Source: a virus
Lineage: Duplodnaviria; Heunggongvirae; Uroviricota; Caudoviricetes
Virus record (IMG/VR): IMGVR_UViG_3300044716_000631
Direction: 5' to 3' (one strand)
DNA: 64,000 bases
Each line of letters begins with the position of its first letter. The stretch's first letter is position 1. The notes below the pieces were generated by a model. That model saw only the letters and a program-made list of their open reading frames with translations, did not search any database and had not been told where the DNA came from. Shown here in pieces: positions 28,939 through 45,954 of the stretch. The position numbers and the translations under genes are program-made.

Positions 28939-30132
28939 ATGAAGTTAACTGAACATTTTTCTTTGGCAGAAATGATTGTTTCTCCTACAGCTAAAAGACT
29001 TGGCCTAAGCAACACACCAACACCTGAACACATTGAGAACATGCGTTACTGCTGCGAGAAGATTCTCGAACCAGTGCGTGCTCACTTTGGTAAACCAGTT
29101 CAGATCAACTCGTCATACCGCGCACCATTGGTGAACAAAGCGGTTGGCGGATCTAAAACATCTCAGCACGTTAACGGACAAGCGATTGACTTCGAAGTTC
29201 CTGGTGTTGATAATAAGAAGGTTGCTGACTGGGTTGCTGATAACCTTGAGTTCGACCAAGTCATTCTAGAATTCTATACTGCCGGTGACAAGAACTCTGG
29301 TTGGGTTCACGCTTCTATTAAGAAGGAAGGCGGCAACCGCAAACTACGTATGATCGCTTCAAAGTCAAAAGCCGGTGGTACAGTATATACTACTGTGAAG
29401 GATTTTGATCCTTCAACTCTTCCTGGTCAATATCGCGCAGCAGCTCAACAAGTGTCGAGTCAAGCAGCTGCTCCAGCTCAAGCTGCTCCGAAGGCGACAG
29501 CGGGTGCAGTTGCGGGTCTAGGTGCATTAGCGGCTCTCCAATCTAAGTGCGGCATTACTGCCGATGGTAAGTGGGGTCCTGGTACTTATAAGGCTGCAAG
29601 AGACTTCTTCAAGCTATCGAACAACCAAGCTGCTCACTTCTTCGGTCAGTGCGCTCACGAGTCGGGTGGCTTCAAGGTATTCCAAGAGAACCTGAACTAT
29701 TCGGACAAGGGTCTAAACGGAATCTTCAAGAAGTACTTCCCAACAATCGCATCAACTGCTGGTTACGCTCGTAAGCCAGAAAAGATTGCCAATAAGGTCT
29801 ATTCAAACCGTATGGGCAATGGACCAGAATCGTCAGGTGATGGTTGGAAGTTCCGTGGTCGTGGTCCTATCCAGTTAACTGGTAAGAGCAACTACACACA
29901 GTTCTCACAAGACATTGGTCGTCCAGATGTTCTAACTAACCCAGACATCGTTGCTACTGAACTTGCATTTGAATCAGCACTTTGGTTCTTCCGCAAGAAC
30001 AACCTGTTTGCAATCGCAGACAAGGGTGTAAGCGACGCTGTGATTACACAAATCACAAAGCGAGTGAATGGTGGAACACACGGTCTTGATGATCGTCTAA
30101 AGAAAACCAAGCAATACGCTGGTTGGGCATAA
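28939..30132 (+). CDS. multi-domain endolysin: M15-family peptidase + peptidoglycan-binding + GH19 chitinase-like glycosidase
   Basis: N-terminus SSYRAP...SQHxxGxAIDF (peptidase M15/VanY-like zinc site); middle CGITADGKWGPGTYKA (PG_binding_1-like); C-terminus AHESGGF...FRGRGPIQLTGKSNY (GH19 catalytic signature). Only clear plus-strand gene. Confidence 0.7.
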   Translation: MKLTEHFSLAEMIVSPTAKRLGLSNTPTPEHIENMRYCCEKILEPVRAHFGKPVQINSSYRAPLVNKAVGGSKTSQHVNGQAIDFEVPGVDNKKVADWVADNLEFDQVILEFYTAGDKNSGWVHASIKKEGGNRKLRMIASKSKAGGTVYTTVKDFDPSTLPGQYRAAAQQVSSQAAAPAQAAPKATAGAVAGLGALAALQSKCGITADGKWGPGTYKAARDFFKLSNNQAAHFFGQCAHESGGFKVFQENLNYSDKGLNGIFKKYFPTIASTAGYARKPEKIANKVYSNRMGNGPESSGDGWKFRGRGPIQLTGKSNYTQFSQDIGRPDVLTNPDIVATELAFESALWFFRKNNLFAIADKGVSDAVITQITKRVNGGTHGLDDRLKKTKQYAGWA

Positions 30133-31918: not shown

Positions 31919-32131
31919 TTAGTCATACTCGATACCTTCGTCTTGCTTGCGACCCATGTAGTGATCATCACTTACGCAATGAAACTGTGCCTGCAGACTG
32001 GTGTTGACGATAGTCTTTGTCACTTGTCCAGCAAACTCTACACATTGCTCCGCACTGCCAGTCTCATAGACATCTTTTGCAAAGTATTCACCATCAGCGG
32101 TGAACAGATATACGATTAACCAAAAACTCAT
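31919..32131 (-). CDS. hypothetical protein (70 aa)
   Basis: ORF. Confidence 0.3.
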   Translation of the reverse strand: MSFWLIVYLFTADGEYFAKDVYETGSAEQCVEFAGQVTKTIVNTSLQAQFHCVSDDHYMGRKQDEGIEYD

Positions 32132-32334
32132 GTTACTTCACCTTTACTCACTTTACGCTGATTGATAATTGATAAAAGCATTGCGTAACTGGCAATCATA
32201 GTAGCCAACGCTGTCTTATCACCATCGTATGCAAGATTACTAATGATGCTAAACATCGCGATGTAGAACAACCACTCAAGTAAACTCTTGAAATGTCGAT
32301 TAATCTCATTCACCAAACTATCCCAAAACCTCAT
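32128..32334 (-). CDS. small membrane protein (C-terminal non-overlapping part of listed ORF 32128-32559)
   Basis: Internal Met MRFWDSL...; 5' part of listed ORF overlaps HExxH gene in another frame. Confidence 0.3.
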   Translation of the reverse strand: MRFWDSLVNEINRHFKSLLEWLFYIAMFSIISNLAYDGDKTALATMIASYAMLLSIINQRKVSKGEVT

Positions 32335-32335
32335 A

Positions 32336-32827
32336 TTAGTTTCCTTTATATTGAACCCACTTTGCAAACAGACCGACTTCGCGGCCGTATGCTTCGATCT
32401 CCCATGGAGCATCGAAGTAGTGATCTTCTTTGCCCTTTGGCTTCCAGATTTCGCCCATCCACTTGCTGTAGATTTTAAGGCCGCCACGAGCAGCAACCAC
32501 ATGGCCAGTACGAAGTTCGTTTTTGGCATGTTGCTTGACATGCACCATTTCATGGCCAAGAGTCTTAATCATGTCTTTGATGTTTTGGCTCTTAAGGCCA
32601 ATGGTGAACCACCGAGGATTACGAAAACCGTCTTCGTCAACGCATTCACCTTCAACCTCGAGGTTATTGTAAACTTCGATATCGAGAGTAAGGTTGCGGA
32701 TCATGCGAGGATCCATTAACTGAATGGCAAAAAACTCTGCAGCTTCCTTGAGAAGCGCCTTCTCTTTGCGCTTACCAATCATACCTGTGATCGTGATGTT
32801 CATAACGTTCCTTTCCATTATGTACAC
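32336..32827 (-). CDS. putative zinc metallopeptidase (HExxH)
   Basis: LGHEMVHVKQH HExxH motif; upstream TGTACA-N17-TAGAGT promoter. Confidence 0.45.
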   Translation of the reverse strand: MYIMERNVMNITITGMIGKRKEKALLKEAAEFFAIQLMDPRMIRNLTLDIEVYNNLEVEGECVDEDGFRNPRWFTIGLKSQNIKDMIKTLGHEMVHVKQHAKNELRTGHVVAARGGLKIYSKWMGEIWKPKGKEDHYFDAPWEIEAYGREVGLFAKWVQYKGN

Positions 32828-32868
32828 TCTATCATATAATCGATATAATGTACATAGGAAAGTGCAAA

Positions 32869-34929
32869 TTATTTTGTCGTTGCGCGATAAATTCCATCAA
32901 AGTTTTGAACATTCGCTTCAAGCATGTCGGTGCAGCGCTCAATCATCATATCATAGTAGGCAACCAATTCACCATTCCATGCTTCTGTCTTACGTTGTTG
33001 AGCCTGATTCATGGCTTTAATCCAGTCACCTTTGCGATATAGCTCAAGGAACGTATCATGCATGATTTGAGAATACGTATCAAAGTGTTCTACGATCGTA
33101 TAGATTTTAACTGGCTCGGTCTTGCCCTTTACCGCAAGCAGATCAAGTTCTACTACTTGGTATACATCCCGAACCATGTCCGCGGTTTGAGGCCCGATGA
33201 CGAGTTTAACTGCATAAGGCTTGGACTGACCTTCGAGACGAGCAGCCAGATTAACCCCATCACCCAAGCAAGTATAATCAAAACGCTGGTCAGAGCCCAT
33301 ATTGCCAACAACCACAGTGGCAGTGTTAATACCAAGACCCATACCGAAAGCTGGGATTCCTTCTTTTTCAACTTCTGCATTAAACGTCTCCAGATCTTTT
33401 AACATGTCGAGTGCTGTACGCACAGCATTCTTGGCGTGGTCTGCATCGTCAAGAGGTGCGTTCCAGAATGCCATCTGAGCATCGCCAATATACTTATCAA
33501 GTGTACCATTATTATCAATGATACGCTTTGTCATAGCCGTCATGTAGCGGTTCATAATCTTTGTCAGACCCTGAACGTCTTCACCATAGTGCTCAGAGAT
33601 CGTAGTGAAGCCACGTACATCAGTGAACATGATTGACAACTCTCTTGACTCGCCACCGAGTGCCAGAAGCTCAGGATTCTTTTGTAGCTTCTCAACCATA
33701 GCAGGTGATAGGTAAGTACCAAACTGCTTCTTAATTTGTTGCTTCTGTAGGAACTCTGAGATGAACTTGACTGTATAGACATGCATATAGATAATGGCAA
33801 TGGCTAAGATGTTAAACGTAACATCAAGAAGAATGCCTTTACTTGCAAACAAGTACACAGGAAGATATGCATAGGCACCAAGTAGAACTGCGATATATAT
33901 TAATGAGAAACGCAGACGTGATACTACAATGAGTGCAATTGCTAGGAATATGAATGATGCAAGATCAACAAGCCCGGTCCAGTTCGGAATCGAAACTGAA
34001 TCTCCATTTAGAAGAGTTTCAAGAACACTTGCTTGCATCTCATGAGGAAACACTCCACCAGCCGGAGTGGCTACAGGATTACTTAATCCAGCTGCAGACG
34101 CTCCAACAATCACGATTTTACCTGTTAGATCAGGAACGTTCTTGTCACCAATTTCGAATGACTGAAATTTGTAGTTCGGATTTACAAAAACACGACCATA
34201 CTCGTCGGTCTTAATAGTATCAAACTGAGGAACACGTAATGCTTCAACACCCGTCTGATTTATCTTCGCTTGATACGAAGGATCTCCTGCGGCAACACGC
34301 AGCATCTCTAGAGCAAATGCGGGGTAGTATTCGCCAGATGATTGAGCTAGAAGAGGAACTCTACGTACGACCCCATCATTCTCAGGAAGCGTTGACGATA
34401 CGCCAACACCAGCGGCGGCTTCTTGCAGAGCTGGAATATTACTTAGAACGCATGGGTATTGAGGAAGAAATTCGGTTGGTTGTCCATCACCAACGACGGC
34501 AACACCTGTCCGACGAACATCGCGATTGGATGGTCGACCGCAATCCGCCGATACAGTCTGACTAAGAACAACTGGATATTGCTTTAACGCATCGACAAGA
34601 GCTCTATCAGTACCCAACCGATCAGGCTCAGGCATAAGTATAGTGCTGCCAACAATGCCAGCCCCTCCGCCGTAAATGTCACTAATGATTTTAGCATGGA
34701 CTTCCCTCGGGAAAGGCCACTGTCCGTATTTTTCAATTGCTTTCTCCCCAATATTGGCCACCACAATCTGTTCTGACTGAACAGTTTTATCCATCATTAG
34801 ATAATCGTAAAACTTTAGACGTGTTGATTCAATCAAGAATGGATCAGCAAACTTAACCGATAATAGAACAGCAAATGTCAGCAAAGCTAACCACGGTGAA
34901 ATAAGAAATTTAATCGCCTTGTTTGACAT
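32869..34929 (-). CDS. CHASE2-sensor class III adenylate/guanylate cyclase (membrane)
   Basis: N-terminal TM, ~300-aa periplasmic region, 3 TM helices, C-terminal cyclase domain (FTDVRGFTTISE...KYIGDAQMAFWNAP...GLGINTATVVVGNMGS). Confidence 0.7.
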   Translation of the reverse strand: MSNKAIKFLISPWLALLTFAVLLSVKFADPFLIESTRLKFYDYLMMDKTVQSEQIVVANIGEKAIEKYGQWPFPREVHAKIISDIYGGGAGIVGSTILMPEPDRLGTDRALVDALKQYPVVLSQTVSADCGRPSNRDVRRTGVAVVGDGQPTEFLPQYPCVLSNIPALQEAAAGVGVSSTLPENDGVVRRVPLLAQSSGEYYPAFALEMLRVAAGDPSYQAKINQTGVEALRVPQFDTIKTDEYGRVFVNPNYKFQSFEIGDKNVPDLTGKIVIVGASAAGLSNPVATPAGGVFPHEMQASVLETLLNGDSVSIPNWTGLVDLASFIFLAIALIVVSRLRFSLIYIAVLLGAYAYLPVYLFASKGILLDVTFNILAIAIIYMHVYTVKFISEFLQKQQIKKQFGTYLSPAMVEKLQKNPELLALGGESRELSIMFTDVRGFTTISEHYGEDVQGLTKIMNRYMTAMTKRIIDNNGTLDKYIGDAQMAFWNAPLDDADHAKNAVRTALDMLKDLETFNAEVEKEGIPAFGMGLGINTATVVVGNMGSDQRFDYTCLGDGVNLAARLEGQSKPYAVKLVIGPQTADMVRDVYQVVELDLLAVKGKTEPVKIYTIVEHFDTYSQIMHDTFLELYRKGDWIKAMNQAQQRKTEAWNGELVAYYDMMIERCTDMLEANVQNFDGIYRATTK

Positions 34930-36001
34930 TGATTATAGTTCCTCCGGCAGGGTCGTTGATTTCCACTAGGAATGATTTTCCATTACTATCTATATATAGA
35001 GTTTTGTTCTCATCCTTTTTAAAACGAACATCAACTGTTGTGCTAAGTGTTCGAACAAGGCGAATGCTATCACCTGAAAGAATGGTTGTAATTTGAGTTG
35101 TATTATCAAGACCAAATATGGTACCGCATAACTTCGTACCTTCTCTGGTTACACAATCACCTCCTGCAAGACTATCATCAAGAAAGTCTTCTCCAAGGAA
35201 GTTAGCATCAATTGCATTAATGTCTAGATCTGAACTGGCAAGCTGGTCTTCTTTAAGATCGTCTTTTGCTAAGAAATCTATATCTAGTTCAGATAGATCG
35301 AGAATGTTTGATCTGGTTTCTCCGGTTTCCTCACCTGTATCAACCGCTTCTGCTGGTGATACAATTAGCATATTGTCAATCTGATCAAGAGATAGATTCA
35401 GAATTACAGGTCGAGTTGGTCTACTATCAGCAGTGGATACAACTGTTGCTTGAAAAGCTTTTGTAAGAATTACAAACCCTGCACCATTTGATACTGTAAT
35501 CTCTCCGACGGATCCATCTGGTTCTGGAAGTAAGATAACAAGGCTCTTGCCAAAATCATCTACAGTTGCAGCAAAATCTGTACCGCGAACAGCGATTGTA
35601 GCAGTTGGTGTACGAAGGTTGATATTACCTTTATTCATTTTGCCAGATTGTCCTGTAGCAAAACGAGCAGTTCCTGAAGCGAACTTGAGAGCCATTCTTG
35701 AAGTGGATGGCTTACCACTATAGACAAAGTCGTCAATCACCAGTTTCGAGTGTTCAGTAACCTTCACGGTAGAGTCGTCCACAAAAGTGATTTCGACTCT
35801 ACCGTTTCCAGTCTGTACTCTATCTAATTTGGCAATAGGTAACTGAGGTTTTGTAGGAAGACGTTGAGCCTTTTTTACAACCTCACTCGTTCCACGAGCT
35901 TGAGTTACTTTACCAATATTAGCAAGGGCCGCCGGCGTTGCACTGATTGATAACAAGAGTGCTGCCAGTGCTTGTGCTATTAACCTTGACCGTGTCAACA
36001 T
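34910..36001 (-). CDS. secreted FecR-domain protein
   Basis: Signal peptide; FecR-like core (VEITFVDDSTVKV...ALKFASGTARF...TPTATIAVRGTDF); 83-nt overlap with upstream ORF. Confidence 0.55.
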   Translation of the reverse strand: MLTRSRLIAQALAALLLSISATPAALANIGKVTQARGTSEVVKKAQRLPTKPQLPIAKLDRVQTGNGRVEITFVDDSTVKVTEHSKLVIDDFVYSGKPSTSRMALKFASGTARFATGQSGKMNKGNINLRTPTATIAVRGTDFAATVDDFGKSLVILLPEPDGSVGEITVSNGAGFVILTKAFQATVVSTADSRPTRPVILNLSLDQIDNMLIVSPAEAVDTGEETGETRSNILDLSELDIDFLAKDDLKEDQLASSDLDINAIDANFLGEDFLDDSLAGGDCVTREGTKLCGTIFGLDNTTQITTILSGDSIRLVRTLSTTVDVRFKKDENKTLYIDSNGKSFLVEINDPAGGTIINVKQGD

Positions 36002-36614
36002 TTGTTGTGCTCTTTTGGTTTACAGTCACGTTGTTTGTGCTACCAGTGAGAACCATTTCAACATTCTTACCGGCTGTTCCATTTTGTGTCATTGTAATGG
36101 TATTACCATCACCTGCAACAGTCATATCATTTACAACGTCATCAGCATTAATAGTTGATGTGTATGTATTGGTATCACCTGTGAATGTGATGTTCTGTGT
36201 TGCACCTGTAGCTGAAGCCGCTGTGCCTTGGTTGAACGTCAGGTTGTTTGAATCACCTGTGACTGCTAGAGTCTTAGTTGAACCAGAAACGCTTGCTCCA
36301 TCGCCCATATCGTATGTTACAGTGTTATTGTCACCAGTCACAGTTGAATCTATATCGATGTTATCGGCTTGTGTAATAGAACCTTGGATAAGGTTACCAT
36401 TACCTTCTTGTGTTGATGTGATTGTCTGGTTGTTACCTTCAATCACAACACGGTTTTGCTCAGAACCGATACGGTTATTTTGACCTTTTTGAGTAATCGT
36501 AATTGTGCTACCATTACCAACTTGGTCGATAAAAATCGAGTTAGTCGTCGACTGAGCATAAGCTAACGAACTCGTCATCAGAGACATAATGAAAAGTGCT
36601 AGTGCCTTTTTCAT
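35919..36614 (-). CDS. secreted curlin-repeat-like beta-solenoid protein (candidate CsgA/B-like substrate)
   Basis: Signal peptide MKKALALFIMSLMTSSLAYA; ~8 imperfect ~22-aa repeats with Q/N/G/T spacing (ITQKGQNNRIGSEQN, TSTQEGNGNLIQGS, LTFNQGTAASATGATQN, ITMTQNGTAGKN, VTVNQKSTTN); immediately downstream of csgG. Confidence 0.4.
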   Translation of the reverse strand: MKKALALFIMSLMTSSLAYAQSTTNSIFIDQVGNGSTITITQKGQNNRIGSEQNRVVIEGNNQTITSTQEGNGNLIQGSITQADNIDIDSTVTGDNNTVTYDMGDGASVSGSTKTLAVTGDSNNLTFNQGTAASATGATQNITFTGDTNTYTSTINADDVVNDMTVAGDGNTITMTQNGTAGKNVEMVLTGSTNNVTVNQKSTTNVDTVKVNSTSTGSTLVINQCNAGGPC

Positions 36615-37402
36615 TGTCCTTCTTCCTTGTAGTGAAAGTATCCTTTCGAAATACCTTGTTTAATTAGTTGTAATACCGCTTCTTCGATGGCCATTTTGAC
36701 CGCCATTGTGTTAGCTTCATTCTCTGTCATTCCGGCTTCGGCTTCAACAAGCTTAGTGCCGACATCTACAAACTTAAAAACTGAAAGATCTCTGCCAACT
36801 GAGAGAACTGTTTTTGAAACCTGTACGTTGAGAATTACTTCTCCAGTATTTGTATTCACACCACGCAACGAAACAACCACCTGATCTTTACGGTACATAG
36901 TAGTACCGCCAATGCCAAGATATCTTGCTCCTGCACCACCAGATTCCAAATTCGAATCGTAACCAATAATACCACCTTGAATAATTAAACCAGCAAAGAG
37001 CATTGGCTCGAGTTTGTTGGCACCTTCTCCAAGATATTCTTCTCGTGTTTGTCGAACAATCTGACGTTCCTTTGCAAGATCGTCAACACGATTACGTTCA
37101 ACAACTCTAAACCATGCTCCACCACCAGCTTCTGTCAGTGCAGAGATCAGAAGCGCTGTACCACCTTGAGTCACCGCAGTCGAGATACTGGCAATGCCAT
37201 CCTTATCTCTTCTTTGACCAGTCAGATCTGGAAAGTCATAGACAGCCACAACTGCTTGTCTTTCTGGTGGTGAAAGGCTCTGCAGTTCTTTTACTTGTAG
37301 TTGTACAAGCTTTGGTTTATCCTGAAGCTGAAGAGCTCCGGAACCCATAGACATACACCCACTCAGAAAAAATGGTAATAAAAAGACTTTCCACTTTACC
37401 AT
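36611..37402 (-). CDS. csgG: curli production assembly/transport lipoprotein CsgG
   Basis: Lipobox LSGC; IIGYDSNLESGGAGARYLGIGGTTMYRKDQVVVSLRGVNTNTGEVILNVQVSKTVLS aligns with E. coli CsgG IIGYESNVKSGGVGARYFGIGADTQYQLDQIAVNLRVVNVSTGEILSSVNTSKTILS. Confidence 0.8.
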   Translation of the reverse strand: MVKWKVFLLPFFLSGCMSMGSGALQLQDKPKLVQLQVKELQSLSPPERQAVVAVYDFPDLTGQRRDKDGIASISTAVTQGGTALLISALTEAGGGAWFRVVERNRVDDLAKERQIVRQTREEYLGEGANKLEPMLFAGLIIQGGIIGYDSNLESGGAGARYLGIGGTTMYRKDQVVVSLRGVNTNTGEVILNVQVSKTVLSVGRDLSVFKFVDVGTKLVEAEAGMTENEANTMAVKMAIEEAVLQLIKQGISKGYFHYKEEGQ

Positions 37403-37836
37403 TTGAATCCACTCGTTGGAATGATAATTTCAGTGGTGTTACCAGCATCGTCAGTGATAACTAGCTTAATCTCAGTGTCAGTCTTCTCATACTTAATGGT
37501 ATTACCTTCAAGGCTAAACTCACCAGACTGGCCACCCATTTCACCGAATAGGTTATTAGTCAGCTGTTGAGCAAGCTGAGAATAGATACGTGACTGCAGG
37601 TTATTCATGAATCGATTCAGAATCGAATTCTTTTCCTCGAGTGCAGCAGCTTTTAGATCAGCTTCAATTTTATCTTGAATCGCTTTCTTACGGCTGAACT
37701 CTTGGTTTTCAATTGTTAACCATTGTGCTCCAGCGTTCTGTCCGCTGAATGAAGGATTCTTAAATTGGAATACTAACTCACTTGCTAGGGCTGGCTGGCT
37801 TACCAGAAGCAGGCTGAGTATCAACAGCTTTTTCAT
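37396..37836 (-). CDS. csgF: curli assembly protein CsgF
   Basis: Signal peptide then ELVFQFKNPSFSGQNAG matching E. coli CsgF TMTFQFRNPNFGGNPNNG; similar length; directly upstream of csgG as in csgEFG. Confidence 0.65.
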   Translation of the reverse strand: MKKLLILSLLLVSQPALASELVFQFKNPSFSGQNAGAQWLTIENQEFSRKKAIQDKIEADLKAAALEEKNSILNRFMNNLQSRIYSQLAQQLTNNLFGEMGGQSGEFSLEGNTIKYEKTDTEIKLVITDDAGNTTEIIIPTSGFKW

Positions 37837-37910
37837 CGAGCTTATCCTTCTTCAATTTTAGTTCCTTATCAGAAGAAAGATTAAACTCAAGTGAGAAGAT
37901 CTTAATGATT

Positions 37911-38174
37911 TCAATTTTCAGGTTTATGGTCACTATGATCTTCCTTTATCTGCAATACAACACTCACCTTCTGTTGAAGTCTAATTAAATCGTTATCCAG
38001 CATACGAATACGATCAATTAGAGCAATCAAAATTACATTAGTTTCTGAAATTAATGGCATTAATCTATCAGTAACAAACTTATAGATGAAGAATACAAAG
38101 TACCCCATCCCTACAGACGCTACAATAGGAAAGCCATATTGTTTTATAAGTTCAGCAATCGTGTTGAGATCCAT
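37911..38174 (-). CDS. small TM protein, paralog B
   Basis: N-terminus MDLNTIAELIKQYGFPIVAS parallels MNYDAIFKLIADVGFPIAAA of ORF 38329-38616. Confidence 0.4.
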   Translation of the reverse strand: MDLNTIAELIKQYGFPIVASVGMGYFVFFIYKFVTDRLMPLISETNVILIALIDRIRMLDNDLIRLQQKVSVVLQIKEDHSDHKPEN

Positions 38175-38616: not shown

Positions 38617-38638
38617 ACGATTCTATTTATAAGTTAGG

Positions 38639-39596: not shown

Positions 39597-39767
39597 TTAG
39601 TCTTTTAGATTCTTTGCAGGCCGATAATGATAGTCATCGTGGATGTTTTCTCCCATGAAATTGACATCCATTTCGTTAATTTCCTTGAGAACGCGGTATC
39701 CAAGGTAGGAAAGGATTCCTACAACAGCTACGCTAGCAACTCCTGCAACTACAGTTTTCTTATCCAT
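39597..39767 (-). CDS. small TM protein (56 aa; not in ORF track)
   Basis: MDKKTVVAGVASVAVVGILSYLGYRVLKEINE...; ATG overlaps peroxiredoxin stop (AATGGATAA). Confidence 0.3.
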   Translation of the reverse strand: MDKKTVVAGVASVAVVGILSYLGYRVLKEINEMDVNFMGENIHDDYHYRPAKNLKD

Positions 39768-40365
39768 TTTCTTTTAGCCAGTTCAGAATGTTTTCTGGAG
39801 ATGTTTCACCATAAGGATCTGACTCACAGTTATCTTCGATGCCAGGTTCGATGAACCACTTTTCAATCTTACCATTGTTGACAACACACGCATAACGCCA
39901 AGAACGCTCGCCGAATCCAAGATTGTCCTTGTCGACACTCATTTTCATCTTGTGAGTAAACTTGGCAGATCCATCAGGAATCATTTTCACCTTCTTGATC
40001 TTTTGCTGCTTGGCCCAGCAGTTCATTACGAATGCATCGTTAACCGATACACAAAGGATGTCATCAATACCCAGTTCCTTGAAAGCCTTGAAGTTTTCTT
40101 CAAAGCCAGGAAGCTGATATGTCGAGCATGTAGGAGTGAATGCACCAGGAAGTGAGAAGAGAACTACACGCTTCTTAGCAAAGTAGTCAAACGTGGTCTT
40201 GTCTTCCCAGCGATACGGATTGTCTCCGCCAATTGACTCATCACGAACACGAGTCTTAAAAACTACGCTAGGAACAACAACAGGGAGTTCCTGTGTATTG
40301 TCATCATACTTGTTCCATGAGCGCTTAACAGCAATTGTTTCTACCATACTATATTTCCTTACCAA
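39760..40365 (-). CDS. peroxiredoxin (Prx5-like thiol peroxidase)
   Basis: Peroxidatic Cys motif FSLPGAFTPTCS. Confidence 0.7.
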   Translation of the reverse strand: MVRKYSMVETIAVKRSWNKYDDNTQELPVVVPSVVFKTRVRDESIGGDNPYRWEDKTTFDYFAKKRVVLFSLPGAFTPTCSTYQLPGFEENFKAFKELGIDDILCVSVNDAFVMNCWAKQQKIKKVKMIPDGSAKFTHKMKMSVDKDNLGFGERSWRYACVVNNGKIEKWFIEPGIEDNCESDPYGETSPENILNWLKENG

Positions 40366-40520: not shown

Positions 40521-40804
40521 GAATAAAGGCGAAGTGGGTGGATTCGGATATACCACCAGTGCCCAGTCAATTTCCTATGAAATCTCAGCACACGACCCGT
40601 TTGCCGGTTGAGCGGGAGACCAATCCCCGAGTCTACTTTATCTCCACTGACAAGGAGATTATTCAGTCACACTTCTTACAGAGTCCGTCGACCCTGATAT
40701 CTATTTGCTCTGTGGGATCCACCCCCACGTACCAGCCCTCAATGGCCGGATCTTAGTTTAATTGCACGGACTACCGTGTCCCAGATCAAGAGCAAAACTT
40801 AAAT

Positions 40805-40915: not shown

Positions 40916-40990
40916 TGGCTCCTCAAGATGGATTCGAACCACCGACCAGGCGATTAACAGTCGCCGGCTCTACCGCTGAGCTATTGAGGA
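40916..40990 (-). tRNA. tRNA-Asn (GUU)
   Basis: Cloverleaf by eye; anticodon loop CUGUUAA; GGTTCGAATCC T-loop; encoded CCA. Confidence 0.8.
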
Positions 40991-41033
40991 ATAAACTCTT
41001 ATTTTCTTAGTCTACACTATATATTAATTAATG

Positions 41034-41228
41034 TCAACCAATATTTTTTAGTTCACTAAGAATTTCTTTATAATGACGAGCAAGAATTTCGCGAATATCT
41101 TGCTTCTGCTTTGGTGTTACGAATTGAAAATCAAAATATAGATTGCCATTCATCGAAGATTCGCCAGCTGCATTGCTAGCATCTTCTAGAAAATCGCTCG
41201 TGTGCATTTGTGATTTAGTAGTAATCAT
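41034..41228 (-). CDS. hypothetical protein (64 aa)
   Basis: ORF between tRNA genes. Confidence 0.3.
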   Translation of the reverse strand: MITTKSQMHTSDFLEDASNAAGESSMNGNLYFDFQFVTPKQKQDIREILARHYKEILSELKNIG

Positions 41229-41247
41229 AACAAACTCCTAAGAAAAA

Positions 41248-41324
41248 TGGAGCCCCCGACAGGATTCGAGCCTGTAACCTTTCGCTTCGTAGGCGAGTGC
41301 TCTATCCAGTTGAGCTACGGAGGC
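41248..41324 (-). tRNA. tRNA-Arg (ACG)
   Basis: Anticodon loop CUACGAA; good acceptor/T-arm; CCA encoded. Confidence 0.75.
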
Positions 41325-41329
41325 ATAAA

Positions 41330-41404
41330 TGGTACCGGATGACGGGATTGAACCGCCGACCCTCTCGGTGTAAACGAGACGCTCTACCGCTGAGCTAATC
41401 CGGC
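41330..41404 (-). tRNA. tRNA-Val (UAC)
   Basis: Anticodon loop UUUACAC; canonical arms. Confidence 0.75.
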
Positions 41405-41412
41405 ATTAAACT

Positions 41413-41495
41413 TGGTACGCCTAGAGGGACTCGAACCCCCACGCTTTCGCACTGGTACCTAAAACCAGCGTGTCTACCAATTCCACCATAGGCGC
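41413..41495 (-). tRNA. tRNA-Leu (UAG), type II
   Basis: 83 nt, long variable arm; anticodon loop UUUAGGU. Confidence 0.65.
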
Positions 41496-41496
41496 A

Positions 41497-41572
41497 TGGT
41501 GCCTTCGGACGGATTCGAACCGCCGACACCTGGTACTTCAGACCAGTGCTCTACCAACTGAGCTACAAAGGC
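41497..41572 (-). tRNA. tRNA-Phe (GAA)
   Basis: Anticodon loop CUGAAGU. Confidence 0.8.
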
Positions 41573-41795
41573 AAATAAAAACTCCTCAACAAATGCGTTT
41601 CCTAGGACACATAAGTTGCCGCCTGTCGTTTCAGGTCAGGACTTAAACCAGAGGTCGGAGTCAATGTAAGTGACCACCTGCAGTGTGCCTTGATTGCTTA
41701 CTTCCGGACGTTGCAATCTTCCCAGATAAAAACAATGTTGCAACAATGTTTTTATCACTTCACGGGTTCAGCCGAGGTGGTCTAGTGGCCTATAT

Positions 41796-41870
41796 TGGTG
41801 GAGGATAACGGGATCGAACCGTTGACCTTCTGCGTGCAAGGCAGACGCTCTCCCAGCTGAGCTAATCCCC
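41796..41870 (-). tRNA. tRNA-Ala (UGC)
   Basis: Anticodon loop CUUGCAC; acceptor GGGGATT. Confidence 0.8.
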
Positions 41871-42021
41871 CCAATATCTTTAAACACAATTTTAATATTC
41901 GAAACTTTATATATCTCTGCTAAAACGGTTTCATCTGTAAACGCCGCACGATTCAAAAGTGTATCGGACATAAACATTACACATTCTGCAGATTCGCTTC
42001 TCATATTCACATTTCTATCTT

Positions 42022-42096
42022 GGTGACACAGGATGGATTCGAACCATCGACTGATGGCGTATGAGACCATTGCTCTACCACTGAGCTACTGTGCCG
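42022..42096 (-). tRNA. tRNA-Met (CAU), elongator-type
   Basis: Anticodon loop CUCAUAC; G1-C72. Confidence 0.7.
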
Positions 42097-42103
42097 TTAT
42101 TCT

Positions 42104-42179
<76 letters not shown>

Positions 42180-42184
42180 TTAAA

Positions 42185-42262
42185 TGGTCGGGAATGTAGG
42201 ATTCGAACCTACGACCTCCTGCTCCCAAAGCAGGCGCGCTGACCAGACTGTGCTAATCCCCG
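42185..42262 (-). tRNA. tRNA-Pro (UGG)
   Basis: Anticodon loop UUUGGGA. Confidence 0.7.
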
Positions 42263-42311
42263 TTATATGCTATCTATATATACATTCTAAATTAAAGTAC
42301 ACAAAAAAATT

Positions 42312-42387
42312 TGGATGCCCCTCCAGGGCTCGAACCTGGACTTTTCGGAATCAAAATCCGACGTGTTGCCTATTACACCAAGGGGCA
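42312..42387 (-). tRNA. tRNA-Gln (UUG)
   Basis: Anticodon loop UUUUGAU; U1-A72 as in bacterial tRNA-Gln. Confidence 0.7.
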
Positions 42388-42394
42388 ATAAAAA

Positions 42395-42479
42395 TGGTGG
42401 GCCGGTGAGGTATCGATCCTCCCCCGCGAACGGATCAGATTTACAGTCTGACTGCCAGAGCCACTGGCTTTACCGACCC
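42395..42479 (-). tRNA. tRNA-Tyr (GUA), type II
   Basis: 85 nt with long variable arm; anticodon loop CUGUAAA. Confidence 0.65.
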
Positions 42480-42484
42480 AAAAA

Positions 42485-42560
<76 letters not shown>

Positions 42561-42570
42561 ATAAAATTAG

Positions 42571-42686
42571 ATTCTAGGCGATTGATAAGTGCACCTCTGG
42601 CTCGCCGAGGATCGAACTCGGTTATCAACTCTTAGCCTGTCGTGTACTTTGACAGGACTTCTTATCCACCGGTTCAGACCTAGAAT
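42571..42686 (-). ncRNA. unclassified structured element / degenerate tRNA-like sequence
   Basis: 8-bp closing helix ATTCTAGG/CCTAGAAT, perfect T-arm-like hairpin CCGAGTTCGATCCTCGG, 6-bp hairpin CCTGTC-9nt-GACAGG; no canonical cloverleaf found. Confidence 0.3.
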
Positions 42687-42839
42687 ATTCAAAACTGATA
42701 AACTACTGAAAAGTAGGCCTTTACACCATTAGACCAAGTCACTTTACTGCCTCTGTACTTTTTGTTCGGTACGAGAGGGGACTTTGGTAATGGAAGTAAA
42801 ATCCAATCTTCGTATTTCATAATATACTCTTTCAAAAAC

Positions 42840-42915
42840 TGGTGAACGATCTGGGGCTCGAACCCAGGACACACAGGTTAAAAGCCCGTTGCTCTACCTA
42901 CTGAGCTAATCGTCC
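42840..42915 (-). tRNA. tRNA-Lys (UUU)
   Basis: Anticodon loop CUUUUAA; acceptor GGACGAT identical to tRNA-Lys(CUU). Confidence 0.75.
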
Positions 42916-42923
42916 ATTAAACT

Positions 42924-43124
42924 TTAACCGATGTAGATCCGATACTCATCGGAATCTACTGGCGCACCTATAGTACGACGTTCGACATAGTAGCGCTGGA
43001 TGAACCGATCGCCATCACGAGTATACACACCGTGAGCAGTCCGTGCTTCATCTTCCGACGCATACACGCCAAGGAGCACCGAACCTTCGTAATCCCATTC
43101 ACCTAATAATGCAAAAACTTCCAT
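42924..43124 (-). CDS. small hypothetical protein (66 aa; internal start of listed ORF)
   Basis: MEVFALLGEWDYEG...; ATG overlaps upstream stop (TGATATGG). Confidence 0.35.
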   Translation of the reverse strand: MEVFALLGEWDYEGSVLLGVYASEDEARTAHGVYTRDGDRFIQRYYVERRTIGAPVDSDEYRIYIG

Positions 43125-43125
43125 A

Positions 43126-43269
43126 TCACATCTCCATAATTTCAAATCGAGCATCAAATGCATTATCCAATACTGCCACAAATTCATCATAATCAGCACC
43201 TGCTTCTTCGCAGGCTTTACGCATCAACCGAACCATGTCGGCAATCATTTCTTCGCGGCTGAGAATCAT
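43126..43269 (-). CDS. small hypothetical protein (47 aa; not in ORF track)
   Basis: MILSREEMIADMVRLMRKACEEAGADYDEFVAVLDNAFDARFEIMEM; upstream TGTACA-N17-TAGTAT promoter. Confidence 0.35.
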   Translation of the reverse strand: MILSREEMIADMVRLMRKACEEAGADYDEFVAVLDNAFDARFEIMEM

Positions 43270-43352
43270 AACCATTTCCTTTAGCTTATTATTCATACTA
43301 CCAAAGATTTGATAAAATGTACACTAAAAAATGCACGGTATGAAAAATAATT

Positions 43353-43430
43353 TGGTAGGGGTAGTGGGACTCGAACCCACACTGTGCGAATTTTAAGTCC
43401 GCTGACTCTAACCAATTGGCCTATACCCCC
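43353..43430 (-). tRNA. tRNA with anticodon UAA (Leu-decoding) but type I (short variable arm)
   Basis: Anticodon loop CUUAAAA; good acceptor and T-arm; only 5-nt variable region and 3-bp D-stem. Confidence 0.5.
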
Positions 43431-43431
43431 A

Positions 43432-43506
43432 TGGGGTGATCGACGGGTATCGAGCCCGCAACTCCGGATTCACAATCCAGCATGTATCCATTAACACCTC
43501 GACCAC
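43432..43506 (-). tRNA. tRNA-His (GUG) with encoded G-1
   Basis: Anticodon loop UUGUGAA; extra 5' G pairing with discriminator C. Confidence 0.7.
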
Positions 43507-43510
43507 CATA

Positions 43511-43596
43511 TGGCGGAACGTCAGGGAGTCGAACCCTGTCTACCCTAAGGTAGTACACCTTAGCAGGGTGCTGCATTACCGTCCTGCCCACGTTCC
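43511..43596 (-). tRNA. tRNA-Ser (GCU), type II
   Basis: 86 nt; anticodon loop CUGCUAA; long variable arm. Confidence 0.7.
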
Positions 43597-43602
43597 TAAA
43601 CT

Positions 43603-43677
43603 TGGTAGCCCGAAAGGGTTTCGATCCCTCTTCTCCGCTGTGAAAGAGCGGTGTCCTAGCCATTAGACGACCGGGCC
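43603..43677 (-). tRNA. tRNA-Glu (UUC)
   Basis: Anticodon loop CUUUCAC. Confidence 0.7.
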
Positions 43678-43678
43678 A

Positions 43679-43753
43679 TGGAGCGGGTGAGCGGATTCGA
43701 ACCGCCGACCACTTCGTTGGCAACGAAGAGCTCTACCACTGAGCTACACCCGC
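43679..43753 (-). tRNA. tRNA-Gly (GCC)
   Basis: Anticodon loop UUGCCAA. Confidence 0.8.
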
Positions 43754-43762
43754 ATTAAAATT

Positions 43763-43834
43763 TGGTTGCGGGAGGGCGAATCGAACGCCACCGAAAGGTT
43801 ATGAGCCTAACATGCTACCGTTACAATATCCCGC
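43763..43834 (-). tRNA. divergent tRNA-like gene with CAU anticodon (Met/Ile2/initiator candidate)
   Basis: Anticodon loop CUCAUAA; weak anticodon stem; possible C1-A72 mismatch; 72 nt. Confidence 0.35.
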
Positions 43835-43841
43835 GTTAAAC

Positions 43842-43915
43842 TGGTGCGGACATCGAGAATCGAACTCGAGACCTCTGGGTGGAAGCCAGATACGTTACCT
43901 CTACGCCATGCCCGC
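43842..43915 (-). tRNA. tRNA-Gly (UCC)
   Basis: Anticodon loop CUUCCAC. Confidence 0.75.
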
Positions 43916-43917
43916 AA

Positions 43918-44009
43918 TGGAGGAAGCGGTGGGATTCGAACCCACGGTACCCGCAAAGGTACGTCTGATTTCAAGTCAGGTGCTTTAAACCGCGCTCAGC
44001 CACGCTTCC
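43918..44009 (-). tRNA. tRNA-Ser (UGA), type II
   Basis: 92 nt; anticodon loop CUUGAAA; long variable arm. Confidence 0.7.
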
Positions 44010-44340
44010 CTATATTTCTAGATTTGTAGGTATCTAATTGAGAATCGCAGTTACTACAAACAAATCTAAGATTTTCTAATCGATTGTCATTATTGATTCC
44101 ATTTATATGATCAAGAATTAATGGCATTGGTTTACCATTCCATTCTGGACCTATACCACAACACCCGCAGTTATATTCAATTTTTTGATCTTGAATAATG
44201 CGTTTTTTGATATGGTGTCTGGCATATGTAGAATTTTCTACAAATACTTCATCATCAGGACGTCTAATAGAAGCATGATATTCTGTAAGAATACCTTTTT
44301 TACCTCTATTCCAGGGTGTAGAACCTTTTAATGCTGGCAT
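43996..44340 (-). mobile_element. HNH homing endonuclease gene inserted in tRNA array (~114 aa)
   Basis: Start at internal Met MPALKG of listed ORF; HNH core EWNGKPMPLILDHINGINNDNRLENLRFVCSNCDSQL; stop lies 14 nt inside 5' end of tRNA-Ser(UGA). Confidence 0.6.
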
Positions 44341-44405
44341 ATATTTTCTCCTCTGCTTATTTATAAGCATTGGTATTTCTAACATATGCAATCGATAAAA
44401 AAAAA

Positions 44406-44481
44406 TGGTGCGTCTAGTAGGCTCCGACCCTACGACCTCACCCTTATCAGGGGTGTGCTCTACCAACTGAGCTATAGACGC
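44406..44481 (-). tRNA. tRNA-Ile (GAU)
   Basis: Anticodon loop CUGAUAA; perfect 7-bp acceptor; unusual T-loop GUCGGAG. Confidence 0.65.
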
Positions 44482-44489
44482 AATATTAA

Positions 44490-44594
44490 ACACACTGGCT
44501 ACTGAGGTGTTGCCACGCTACCGGCAGTAATTTCGCTCTTTACGTTCCCATCTTCCCCCAAAACGCTTGGTCGCCACGGGAACTTCCAGTGTGT
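44490..44594 (-). ncRNA. structured RNA element, copy 2, between tRNA-Trp and tRNA-Ile
   Basis: See copy 1 (40805-40911); flanked on both sides by tRNA genes, so RNase P/Z processing would release it. Confidence 0.5.
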
Positions 44595-44627
44595 ATCTTA
44601 AAACTCTAACAATTTCAAAGAGCATTC

Positions 44628-44702
44628 TGGCGAGGGTGCCAGGATTCGAACCCGGATCGCAAGGTTTTGGAGACCTGCATGTTACCGTTACAACACACCG
44701 AC
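44628..44702 (-). tRNA. tRNA-Trp (CCA) candidate with acceptor-stem mismatches
   Basis: Anticodon arm CAGGU-CUCCAAA-ACCUU resembles E. coli tRNA-Trp; 5 of 7 acceptor pairs. Confidence 0.5.
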
Positions 44703-44708
44703 ATAACT

Positions 44709-44785
44709 TGGCGATCTAGAAGGGACTTGAACCCTCGACCTCTCGCGTGACAGGCGAGTGCTCTAACCAACTGAGCTACTAGACC
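44709..44785 (-). tRNA. tRNA-Asp (GUC)
   Basis: Anticodon loop CUGUCAC; preceded by TTGACA and TATAAATA motifs. Confidence 0.75.
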
Positions 44786-44795
44786 AATGAACTTG

Positions 44796-44836
44796 TATTT
44801 ATACCGTTCTACTACATTTTCGCAAATATGTCAACA
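44796..44836 (-). promoter_or_regulatory. overlapping early (TTGACA-N17-TAGAAC) and late (TATAAATA) promoter motifs upstream of tRNA-Asp
   Basis: Minus TATAAATA at 44796-44803, 12 nt before tRNA 5' end; TTGACA at ~44831-44836. Confidence 0.4.
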
Positions 44837-44843
44837 ATTATTT

Positions 44844-45296
44844 TTAGTTTAAATGTCGAACTGCGTGATCTGCGGCATGAGTAGCGGCGAATGCAGAAGG
44901 CTTAATCTTTGCATCCATACCAAGTGAACCTCTTACCCAACCAAGCGCTTCCTTTACAGCAACGTTTGACTTATGATTTGGATTTGGATTGATGTCCAAA
45001 TGGATTTCGAAGTGACGATCGCCGATTACATCAATAATCTCTGTAGCGGTTGATACGGCAAGCTGCACTTCCATTAGTAGACGCTGCTTCAAGTTACCAT
45101 AGTCAGGCATGTCGACAGAGGTGTGAAACAGTTGTCCACCCTTCTTCGAATCCATGTGGATAATTACCACAGTAGAATACTTAGCATACCACATCTTGTT
45201 CTTTCTGAAACGAATCGAGTCACAGCCAATGTAGACTGATGAATTTGGACTTGAATCTAGAATCGCCTGCTTTGCTTTTTCAATCATTGTACTCAC
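44844..45296 (-). CDS. hypothetical protein (150 aa)
   Basis: ORF between tRNA sub-clusters. Confidence 0.45.
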   Translation of the reverse strand: MSTMIEKAKQAILDSSPNSSVYIGCDSIRFRKNKMWYAKYSTVVIIHMDSKKGGQLFHTSVDMPDYGNLKQRLLMEVQLAVSTATEIIDVIGDRHFEIHLDINPNPNHKSNVAVKEALGWVRGSLGMDAKIKPSAFAATHAADHAVRHLN

Positions 45297-45302
45297 TCAT
45301 TA

Positions 45303-45380
45303 TGGAGTCACGAGCGGGATTCGAACCCGCGGCTTTCAGGTTTTGCAGACCTGTGCATTGGACCACTCTGCCACCGTGAC
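45303..45380 (-). tRNA. tRNA-Cys (GCA)
   Basis: Anticodon loop CUGCAAA. Confidence 0.7.
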
Positions 45381-45385
45381 ATTAA

Positions 45386-45685
45386 TTATGGATGCTTCCA
45401 AACAACTTTGCGTTGTGATTTGGCAATCCGTTTTGTTTCTTTCGCGCGATCATAGAAGTCAATCCAGCTATCATACTGTTTCATCGCAGCTTCTTTAGCA
45501 AATTCCAAAGTTGGAAACGTATTTGAAGGATACGCACGATTTGCAGATGGATAGTTCTTTATAAGCGACCAATTATCCAGGAACGGTAAGAAACGATAGG
45601 TGCAGATCGCATACTCTGCAATAAACCCATCCTTCTCATTACCACGAACACGTACTTTTACACCGTAAGGAACTTTCTCAAACAT
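45386..45685 (-). CDS. hypothetical protein (99 aa; internal start MFEKVPYG of listed ORF)
   Basis: GGAG RBS 8 nt upstream of ATG at 45685; N-terminal extension of listed ORF not preceded by RBS. Confidence 0.4.
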   Translation of the reverse strand: MFEKVPYGVKVRVRGNEKDGFIAEYAICTYRFLPFLDNWSLIKNYPSANRAYPSNTFPTLEFAKEAAMKQYDSWIDFYDRAKETKRIAKSQRKVVWKHP

Positions 45686-45799
45686 AATATATTCTCCAAA
45701 ACAAAAATAATACCATTTTTTGAGCTCACTACCGTCTACCATCATGGTCGGGGTGGTTACCTGACACCGTCGTGGTGCTGGCGTAGTGAACTCAAAAAA

Positions 45800-45875
45800 T
45801 GGTACTCCCGGAGGGACTCGAACCCCCAACCTAGCCCTTATGAGGGGCCAGCTCTAACCATTGAGCTACAGGAGT
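45800..45875 (-). tRNA. tRNA with CAU anticodon (Ile2/initiator/Met candidate), A1-U72
   Basis: Anticodon loop CUCAUAA with three C-G pairs in stem; T-loop UUCGAGU. Confidence 0.6.
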
Positions 45876-45877
45876 AA

Positions 45878-45954
45878 TGGTGATCCCGGTAGGACTTGAA
45901 CCTACGACCCCAAGCTTAGAAGGCTCGTGCTCTATCCAGCTGAGCTACGGGACC
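45878..45954 (-). tRNA. tRNA-Arg (UCU)
   Basis: Anticodon loop CUUCUAA. Confidence 0.75.

Follow-up and report, generated by a model that had tools for sequence, protein, structure and literature searches.

Viral curli modules, which carry type VIII secretion system (T8SS) genes, are very common in ocean viromes, and their function is still debated. In podo- and myo-pelagiphages, Wittmers et al. 2022 counted FecR and an adenylate cyclase among the parts of the viral T8SS region. All 65 GOV2.0 stations yielded viral curli genes in that study, which also reported expression of the viral T8SS genes, including FecR and the cyclase, in metatranscriptomes and inferred an alphaproteobacterial origin (PMC9599517). 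FecR, the cyclase and a gene labelled 'histidine kinase' are not found in bacterial curli operons; FecR was interpreted in that study as an iron regulator, and the CHASE2 domain was unmentioned (PMC9599517). Curli genes were also discussed by Zaragoza-Solas et al. 2020 (PMC7029224) and Buchholz et al. 2022 (PMC9004378), in which the cyclase, FecR and CHASE2 are never mentioned. Published ideas on the function of the module include aggregation ('sibling capture'), the import of molecules and the timing of lysis. Here we analysed a 64,000-nucleotide (nt) stretch of viral DNA, IMG/VR record IMGVR_UViG_3300044716_000631 (the window), in which the gene of a FecR-domain protein and the gene of a CHASE2 receptor with a class III cyclase domain stand at the end of such a module. 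The module, including FecR and the cyclase, has already been described, and the window is a further example of it.

Bacterial FecR-CHASE2 pairs offer a second point of reference. In S. meliloti, NsrA and CyaK are both required for the cyclic AMP (cAMP) response to the protein signal uL2 (PMC7529298; PMC13001267). Free ribosomal protein uL2, present in any cell extract, triggers this pair, and the outer-membrane barrel of NsrA comprises amino acids (aa) 600-1200 (PMC7529298); the FecR domain of NsrA is unmentioned in both papers. Deletion of CHASE2 from another CHASE2 cyclase, CyaD1, led to constitutive cAMP production, and S. meliloti smc02177 is a further FecR/CHASE2 case (PMC5498481). FecR-CHASE2 adjacency is also found in a Burkholderia biofilm operon encoding a LysM/FecR protein and a CHASE2 histidine kinase (PMC5192318) and in Campylobacterota clusters of a CHASE2 cyclase with FecR, TPR and phosphodiesterase genes (PMC9239204). 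The first-pass annotation of the window had called FecR plus CHASE2 a recurrent bacterial sensing unit, and these operons, together with nsrA-cyaK and the alphaproteobacterial loci described below, bear this out.

We tentatively propose, at a little less than an even chance, that the pair in the window forms the sensing part of the viral curli (type VIII secretion) module, an outer-to-inner-membrane relay that produces cAMP. The homology of the cyclase to CyaK, the NsrA-like FecR neighbour and the adhesin-linked bacterial pairs together lead to a hypothesis for the module's regulatory half that is the first to be anchored in experiments, namely an outer-membrane-to-cAMP relay tied to a surface fibre, which can be tested by simple heterologous assays. 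As far as the searched literature shows, the CHASE2 identity of the sensor, the NsrA-CyaK homology and synteny, the co-variation of FecR with CsgF/CsgG and the association between the nearest bacterial pairs and adhesin-like proteins secreted by type I systems are new here; the search returned no paper joining CHASE2 with phage cyclases and none joining 'FecR domain' with RTX or type I secretion.

The phage cyclase is a predicted class IIIb adenylyl cyclase with a CHASE2 sensor

Pfam placed the CHASE2 domain of the cyclase at aa 21-332 (nt 33934-34869) and the catalytic domain (Guanylate_cyc, PF00211) at aa 429-612 (nt 33094-33645), followed by a helical C-terminal extension at aa 613-686. Hydropathy peaks at aa 4-33 and 316-390, which gives a first transmembrane (TM) helix at about aa 8-30, a periplasmic CHASE2 domain, three TM helices at about aa 316-390 and a cytoplasmic catalytic domain. 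This is the layout of CHASE2 receptors, in which a TM helix, an extracytoplasmic CHASE2 domain and a three-TM block precede a cytoplasmic output domain. Here and below, protein localisations were read off sequence features (hydropathy, signals) rather than from a dedicated predictor. The earlier calls of a FecR-domain protein and a CHASE2 cyclase in a phage agree with Pfam and with phage gene families.

The best matches of the cyclase by phmmer against PDB sequences were P. aeruginosa CyaB (3R5G, 4.3e-31, 111 bits) and Spirulina CyaC (1WC1, 3.4e-27). In the alignment to these two, D437 and D483 occupy the metal positions, K479 and T553 form the purine pair, and N560 and R564 stand at the transition-state positions. 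D437, D483, N560 and R564 fall on the conserved CyaC motifs DIxGFT, GDA and NxAAR, which contain the catalytic residues of that enzyme. Among class III cyclases, Lys plus Thr at the substrate positions goes with ATP, with Thr at the second position marking subclass IIIb, and Glu/Cys is found in guanylyl cyclases. Because of the K479/T553 pair, the phage enzyme is predicted to be a class IIIb adenylyl cyclase. The first-pass annotation had quoted substrate- and metal-binding signatures, had judged the enzyme probably active and had proposed an alignment of the substrate residues. The quoted motifs are present in the translation (FTDVRGFT at 434-441, KYIGDAQMAFWNAP at 479-492 and GLGINTATVVVGNMGS at 531-546), the alignment to CyaB and CyaC points to ATP through the K/T pair, and with all six catalytic residues in place the cyclase looks catalytically competent.

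The six catalytic positions were kept in 69-72 of 72 viral homologues; the exceptions were Methylophilales phage Melnitz, with Asp553 and Ser560, and Pelagibacter phage HTVC008M, with Ser553. The length of 686 aa falls within that of the homologues (677-696 aa), and the cyclase domain of relatives is on average 81% identical to the window copy. Among ten close relatives, the ratio of non-synonymous to synonymous substitution (dN/dS) was 0.05-0.13 over the CsgF, CsgG, curlin-repeat, FecR and cyclase genes (cyclase about 0.13; the other four 0.05-0.08, with FecR at 0.07 and curlin-repeat at 0.08), values that are approximate because dS is near saturation. All five genes are thus under purifying selection, and the cyclase open reading frame (ORF) is intact and not decaying, as judged by its length, its kept catalytic residues and its low dN/dS. 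Neither of the defects that the annotation had named as arguing against an active enzyme, lost catalytic residues or a disrupted ORF, was found. In the loci L074, L076, L077 and L080, the CHASE2 part is about 45% identical to that of the window cyclase and the catalytic part 84-87%, which indicates swapping of sensor domains between phage lineages.

A competent cyclase might also work alone, which was the main idea of the first-pass annotation. It would raise cAMP whatever the CHASE2 ligand and so switch host CRP-type regulons to phage production. The intact active site and the strong conservation of the cyclase domain suit such stand-alone reprogramming, and since we found no phage-encoded cAMP receptor, a host target would be needed. 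The large CHASE2 sensor is, however, kept under purifying selection, and because the CHASE2 deletion of CyaD1 is constitutively active, a phage needing only cAMP could drop the domain. The invariable place of the cyclase at the end of the envelope module, in viral loci with sufficient flanks, also speaks against it, and the possible late promoter described below fits poorly with an early takeover. We consider this explanation rather unlikely, although it deserves to be kept beside the relay.

The cyclase product could, as the annotation had also suggested, act in anti-defence by jamming or decoying Pycsar- or CBASS-type immunity. PADLOC models of PycC do match the cyclase domain (best 5.7e-25), but this likeness reflects the shared class III fold, and adenylyl cyclases match better, as the CyaB score shows. 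The K/T pair points to ATP, a cytoplasmic decoy enzyme would need neither a membrane receptor with a periplasmic sensor nor a fixed place in an envelope module, and no gene for an effector activated by cyclic nucleotide monophosphates (cNMP) or for a sponge is adjacent to the cyclase. The suggestion is therefore unsupported, and we regard it as very improbable. Membership in a Pycsar system was rejected on the grounds that the PycC models match the cyclase domain only, that no effector is adjacent and that the substrate residues point to ATP.

Many bacterial relatives pair the cyclase with FecR domains and surface-protein secretion

The phage cyclase is 32% identical to S. meliloti CyaK over 658 aa, that is, over its full length (E 2e-80). 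On pSymB, nsrA (L167:5279-8881) lies on the 5' side of cyaK and ends exactly where cyaK starts. By Pfam, NsrA contains a FecR domain at aa 66-160 (2.3e-15) and TPR repeats at aa 378-587, and the phage FecR protein shows local similarity to this FecR domain (34% over 90 aa, 8e-6). The requirement for both NsrA and CyaK in the response is genetic evidence for a FecR-domain protein acting upstream of a cyclase homologous to the phage enzyme.

A cyclase alignment was used to scan 185,579 species genomes. The nearest bacterial cyclases were alphaproteobacterial and 34-38% identical over their full length, with sources including Bradyrhizobium, Afipia, Pseudolabrys, Methylobacterium, Roseovarius and Terasakiella. 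Among the 48 well-flanked loci (at least 7 kb on both sides), a FecR-domain ORF was present in 25, type I secretion genes (ATP-binding cassette, or ABC, plus HlyD) in 22, and either of the two in 37. The FecR ORFs encode proteins of 1300-2400 aa, with the FecR domain near the N-terminus and RTX, cadherin-like, Ig-like or laminin-G repeats after it. These giant proteins have a serralysin-type C-terminal region and a BapA-prefix-like start and lack a Sec signal; this start, the missing Sec signal and the repeats together suggest type I secretion substrates of the giant-adhesin kind. They occur in L090, L100 (for example L100:3416-8827), L108, L137 and L164, among others. Profiles built from the viral proteins detected CsgG, CsgF or curlin within 9 kb of the nearest cyclases in none of 79 loci of the sampled bacteria. 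On an Ensifer plasmid, genes for a TPR protein, a 220-aa FecR protein, an NHLP-type exporter and a cNMP-binding protein stand together and run divergently from those of a CHASE2 cyclase and a metallo-beta-lactamase-fold hydrolase.

The FecR protein evolves with the secretion cassette

The phage FecR protein begins with a cleavable Sec-type signal peptide (aa 1-27, nt 35921-36001), which is kept in nearly all homologous loci examined. The FecR domain (aa 60-154, nt 35540-35824) is followed by an acidic, Asp/Leu-rich linker at about aa 215-280 and a strand-rich C-terminal part, and the protein matches phrog_37870 (1.3e-67). Pfam assigned only PF04773, with no anti-sigma N-domain, membrane anchor or FecR_C. 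FecR relatives number 12,218. A comparison with PDB sequences gave no match at E up to 1, and an AlphaFold2 model from a shallow alignment of 30 close homologues was unusable (mean predicted local distance difference test score 34).

In E. coli, the periplasmic domain of FecR contacts an outer-membrane barrel protein and passes the signal to the inner membrane. The reading of the viral protein as a regulator of iron-citrate uptake draws on its Pfam FecR domain and on limitation by iron being important in the surface ocean (PMC9599517). The domain is, however, only the generic periplasmic one, with a signal peptide in place of the sigma-binding domain and anchor, and its relatives are found in adhesin-like proteins and in NsrA. 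An extracytoplasmic-function (ECF) sigma factor (FecI) and a TonB-dependent transducer (FecA) are not among the neighbouring ORFs (CsgF, CsgG, curlin, cyclase), nor are they among the best 25 of 46 Pfam families matched by the 66 window proteins. We give iron sensing hardly any credence, and a role as iron-citrate regulator was rejected on the basis of the domain architecture, which has a signal peptide instead of a sigma-binding domain and no FecR_C.

To ask with which neighbours FecR has evolved, we compared pairwise identity matrices across 36 non-redundant viral loci, a test that physical linkage confounds. FecR correlated with CsgF/CsgG at r 0.94-0.98 and with the cyclase domain at r 0.32-0.35; the CHASE2 and cyclase domains correlated with each other at r 0.66. 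CHASE2 domains that are 76-78% identical were joined to CsgF-CsgG-curlin-FecR cassettes only 41-45% identical, and the reverse combination was also seen. Such mixed combinations indicate that the cassette and the cyclase have recombined independently. The phage FecR thus belongs evolutionarily to the CsgF/CsgG secretion cassette and is not a fixed partner of the cyclase, and its co-variation with CsgF/CsgG fits a docking of FecR to the CsgG/CsgF apparatus.

The same data can be read as making FecR a type VIII secretion component only, either a periplasmic gate or adaptor replacing CsgE or a secreted fibre accessory, with the cyclase as a separate sensor. FecR tracks CsgF/CsgG in its variation and not the cyclase, cassette and cyclase have each recombined on their own, and many loci have an additional gene between the two. 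FecR is also nearly universal in viral curli modules, in which the cyclase is only frequent (PMC9599517). A CsgE gene was not found in the cluster, which leaves a gate role for FecR, and in the nearest bacteria the FecR domain is inside secreted adhesin-like proteins. Against this, FecR-domain genes recur beside CHASE2 sensors of differing outputs in several phyla, the FecR and cyclase genes overlap by at least 20 nt in the window and its close relatives, and the FecR-carrying NsrA is genetically required for CyaK signalling. We hold this explanation to be the less likely one, yet a serious competitor of the relay.

A possible relay from the secretion apparatus to cAMP

In the proposed relay, the FecR-domain protein would be periplasmic and docked to the outer-membrane apparatus of CsgG/CsgF. 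What it passes on to the CHASE2 domain would be either the state of this apparatus or a signal that comes through it or reaches it, and CHASE2 would in turn switch cAMP synthesis in the infected cell. The model rests on the parallel with NsrA-CyaK, on the control of CyaD1 by its CHASE2 domain, on the recurrent adjacency of FecR and CHASE2 and on the co-variation of FecR with CsgF/CsgG. By analogy, it would mirror NsrA-CyaK with the barrel (CsgG) and the FecR module as separate phage proteins. As target of the cAMP, a host cNMP-binding regulator is presumed because no CRP-like gene was found in the phage. As to origin, an alphaproteobacterial FecR/CHASE2-cyclase unit, there accompanied by secreted giant adhesins, was probably joined in the phage to a CsgGF cassette of alphaproteobacterial type. 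If the relay is real, infected cells of very abundant marine bacteria acquire a new second-messenger input.

Several observations weigh against this reading. FecR correlated with the CHASE2 domain at only r 0.39-0.41, which argues against a tightly co-evolving FecR-CHASE2 interface, and the FecR proteins that accompany nearly identical cyclases shared only about 43% identity. In many podophage modules FecR occurs without the cyclase (PMC9599517), so FecR must have a cyclase-independent role. The similarity between the phage FecR protein and NsrA is limited to about 90 residues, and the phage protein lacks the TPR repeats and barrel of NsrA. The FecR-CHASE2 and FecR-CsgG contacts that the relay needs are putative. 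The Ser of Melnitz in place of the catalytic Asn implies that activity may not be universal. Finally, phmmer with E. coli CRP detected nothing CRP-like in any of the window's six frames, the window being only part of the phage genome. In line with this, CRP gave no tblastn match in HTVC008M or Melnitz in a search of 50,697 phage records. Such searches could overlook remote cNMP-binding domains; cNMP_binding did not appear among the best 25 of the 46 Pfam families matched by the 66 window proteins.

The module might further be a trans-envelope sensor of the outside, a split analogue of NsrA/CyaK in which CsgG/CsgF, FecR and the CHASE2 cyclase detect extracellular or periplasmic proteins, for example debris of lysed neighbours or superinfecting phage, and turn them through cAMP into lysis timing or cell-surface behaviour. 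We think this improbable, though worth stating: if true, a secretion pore and a second messenger would together make up a signalling logic of a kind with T4 lysis inhibition or arbitrium. In a variant idea, the acidic FecR linker would thread the CsgG channel, with the FecR domain staying periplasmic and the C-terminal domain exposed, much as in N-terminally retained giant type I secretion adhesins with a FecR domain.

Architecture and spread of the module

The features of the module and its surroundings are collected in Table 1. The CsgF, CsgG, curlin-repeat, FecR and cyclase genes are co-directional, with FecR and the cyclase at the 3' end of the cluster. The ORF coordinates confirm the earlier statement that the pair is co-directional with, and overlaps, the curli-like genes: the end of the FecR gene and the start of the cyclase gene overlap by 20 nt, and the start of the FecR gene overlaps the end of the curlin-repeat ORF by 83 nt, which encode the FecR signal peptide. 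Nearly all related loci examined had an overlap of curlin and FecR, 32-125 nt long, and four distant ones had none.

Table 1 Features of the curli module and its surroundings in the window.
Feature	Position	Strand	Evidence and remarks
Small membrane protein, 95 aa	38329..38616	-	N-terminal single TM helix, then helical tail; phrog_18771 6e-30; no Pfam family
Small membrane protein, 87 aa	37911..38174	-	Single-pass; phrog_18771 1.4e-30; no kinase domain by Pfam
CsgF-like protein	37396..37836	-	Pfam CsgF 7.9e-24; signal peptide, N-terminus MKKLLILSLLLVSQPALA
CsgG-like outer-membrane lipoprotein (type VIII secretion pore)	36611..37402	-	Pfam CsgG 4.5e-48; lipobox LSGC at Cys16
Curlin-repeat protein, candidate fibre subunit	35919..36614	-	Signal peptide; Pfam Curlin_rpt 2.6e-4
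FecR-domain protein, 363 aa	34910..36001	-	Pfam FecR 2.7e-11
CHASE2 receptor with class III cyclase, 686 aa	32869..34929	-	Pfam CHASE2 5.6e-40, Guanylate_cyc 2.2e-18
HExxH protein, 163 aa	32336..32827	-	Motif HEMVH; phrog_10499 4.7e-26; weak metallo-protease PHROG 6e-5
TATAAATA, T4-type late-promoter consensus	38624..38631	-	Followed after 7 nt by the ATG of the first small membrane-protein gene
tRNA gene block	40916-45954	-	25 genes by ARAGORN and a 26th candidate by Rfam (43766-43835, 35.3 bits)

The CsgG-like protein also matched the NCBIfam CsgG model (7.9e-49), under its equivalog cut-off. The curlin-repeat protein scored 21.3 bits against a Pfam cut-off of 20.7, and its match to the CsgA equivalog (0.003) was far under the cut-off of that model. 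No Pfam match to CsgE, CsgC/CsgH or CsgD was obtained in the cluster or the adjoining ORFs, in agreement with PMC9599517. The two small membrane proteins are paralogues, about 30% identical, and small proteins of phrog_18771 accompany the module in nearly all related loci, even when relocated to its other side and to the other strand. They are probably the 'short, diverged' genes labelled histidine kinase in PMC9599517. Between the two genes in the window lie about 155 nt with a 51-aa ORF, which are absent from the otherwise near-identical contig L003. The protein with the zinc-protease motif HEMVH is encoded directly 3' of the cyclase in only some related loci (50-100% identity), and its membership in the module is uncertain.

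By tblastn, cyclases about 40% identical were found in HTVC008M and in four Melnitz genomes, in which the annotated order is CsgF, CsgG, curlin-associated, FecR/hypothetical, curlin-repeat/hypothetical and cyclase. Cyclase genes were counted on at least 588 IMG/VR contigs, and the protein collection contains more than 120 cyclase clusters of at least 74% identity. Among the 80 IMG/VR loci fetched, the gene order was the same wherever the flanks were long enough, and the cyclase was always the last gene of the envelope module. Two forms of the module were distinguished: a compact form, as in the window, in which FecR overlaps the cyclase, and a long form with 1-1.9 kb of extra coding sequence between them, which in Melnitz is a second curlin-repeat gene. 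A complete module with a 76% identical cyclase was also observed on a 46.6-kb contig (L087, RGCF01000015.1) in a metagenome-assembled genome (MAG) labelled Bacteroidetes, most likely a mis-binned phage contig.

A candidate late promoter and the phage setting

The octamer TATAAATA upstream of the first small membrane-protein gene is a candidate promoter for the whole co-directional cluster and hints at late expression. It occurs seven times in the window, always on the - (coding) strand, against 2.7 matches expected on both strands together, and these sites fit T4-type late promoters. In about half of the viral loci with the small genes before csgF, the octamer precedes the first small TM gene by 12-16 nt; in four loci with the small genes elsewhere, it precedes csgF by 57-74 nt. 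The 7-nt spacing to the ATG in the window is odd and would imply a nearly leaderless transcript or another role for the motif. A scan for sigma-70 promoters was uninformative (22 sites against 20.3 expected), and terminator-like sites did not coincide with gene ends.

A further reading takes up the proposal that the CsgGF pore is a gated channel (Buchholz et al. 2022, PMC9004378); the module, including the cyclase, would time lysis or sense infection density, with cAMP as a readout of periplasmic or external cues. The possible late promoter before the cluster suits this proposal, as does the response of NsrA/CyaK to a ribosomal protein released from broken cells. On the other side, any link to a holin, antiholin or spanin is hypothetical, CsgG sits in the outer membrane and holins act at the inner membrane, and the argument in the literature is purely syntenic. 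We rate such a timing role as distinctly improbable. Taken together, the relay reading is ahead, its main rivals are a FecR confined to secretion and a stand-alone cyclase, and lysis timing, anti-defence and iron sensing rank lower.

The window derives from a T4-like marine myophage. Its family B DNA polymerase is of T4 type and shares 51% identity with those of cyanomyophages, and further gene families include RegA, UvsX, gp44/45 (clamp-loader and clamp), a gp41-like/DnaB-like helicase and an RNA ligase. The guanine-cytosine (GC) fraction of the curli module is 0.43, the same as that of the remaining window (window about 42%), which indicates that the module is not a recent foreign insertion. 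Megablast of positions 32000-38000 against the 50,697 phage records gave no nucleotide match, and relatives were found at the protein level only; the window lineage is thus a new member and not a known genome in that collection. The 25-26 tRNA genes are probably unusually many when set beside HTVC008M and Melnitz. Just downstream of the tRNA block, a manA RNA motif (Rfam RF01745, 58.8 bits against a gathering score of 55.2) at 40527-40695 (-) precedes a 65-aa ORF and a peroxiredoxin-like gene at 39760-40365. About 2.7 kb from the module, a 397-aa ORF at 28939-30132, one of the few on the + strand, is a likely endolysin candidate. A Peptidase_M15_3 match among the window proteins is, judged by sequence, probably its N-terminal half, and its C-terminal half has a lysozyme-like appearance by eye.

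Comparison with known systems

The closest modules are those of pelagiphages, including HTVC008M, Melnitz, pelagimyophage MAGs and HTVC023P-type podophages. They share with the window the gene order of two small membrane proteins, CsgF, CsgG, curlin-repeat, FecR and cyclase, as well as a T4-like marine myophage backbone, and CsgE, CsgC and CsgD are absent in both. Compared with the cultured pelagiphages, the window differs in its cyclase, which is about 40% identical, in the compact form of its module, in its GC content of about 42% and in its 25-26 tRNA genes, and the host of the window phage need not be SAR11.

With the FecA-FecR-FecI system of E. coli, the phage protein has the periplasmic FecR domain in common, but it is without the cytoplasmic anti-sigma domain, the anchor and FecR_C. 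The catalytic domain of the phage cyclase aligns end to end with CyaB 3R5G and CyaC 1WC1, shares all their catalytic residues and, like them, has Thr in place of the Asp of class IIIa; the sensor domains differ, with CHASE2 in the phage enzyme, which also bears a helical C-terminal extension. This extension is included in the full-length likeness to the cyclases of the alphaproteobacterial CHASE2-cyclase/type I loci, in which a FecR domain is likewise encoded beside the cyclase and tied to surface-protein secretion. In those loci, secretion is of type I (ABC plus HlyD) and the FecR domain makes up the N-terminal part of large proteins (1300-2400 aa or more) that lack a Sec signal, whereas secretion in the phage is of type VIII.

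NsrA-CyaK shares with the phage pair the CHASE2 class III cyclase architecture, with Ser in CyaK at the position of the phage Thr553, and in both a FecR-domain gene abuts the cyclase gene on its 5' side. The output of NsrA-CyaK is through Clr, and no Clr-like gene is found in the phage window. An outer-membrane barrel takes part in the S. meliloti system, where a single 1200-aa protein combines FecR, TPR and barrel, and in the phage a 363-aa FecR protein stands beside a separate CsgG barrel.

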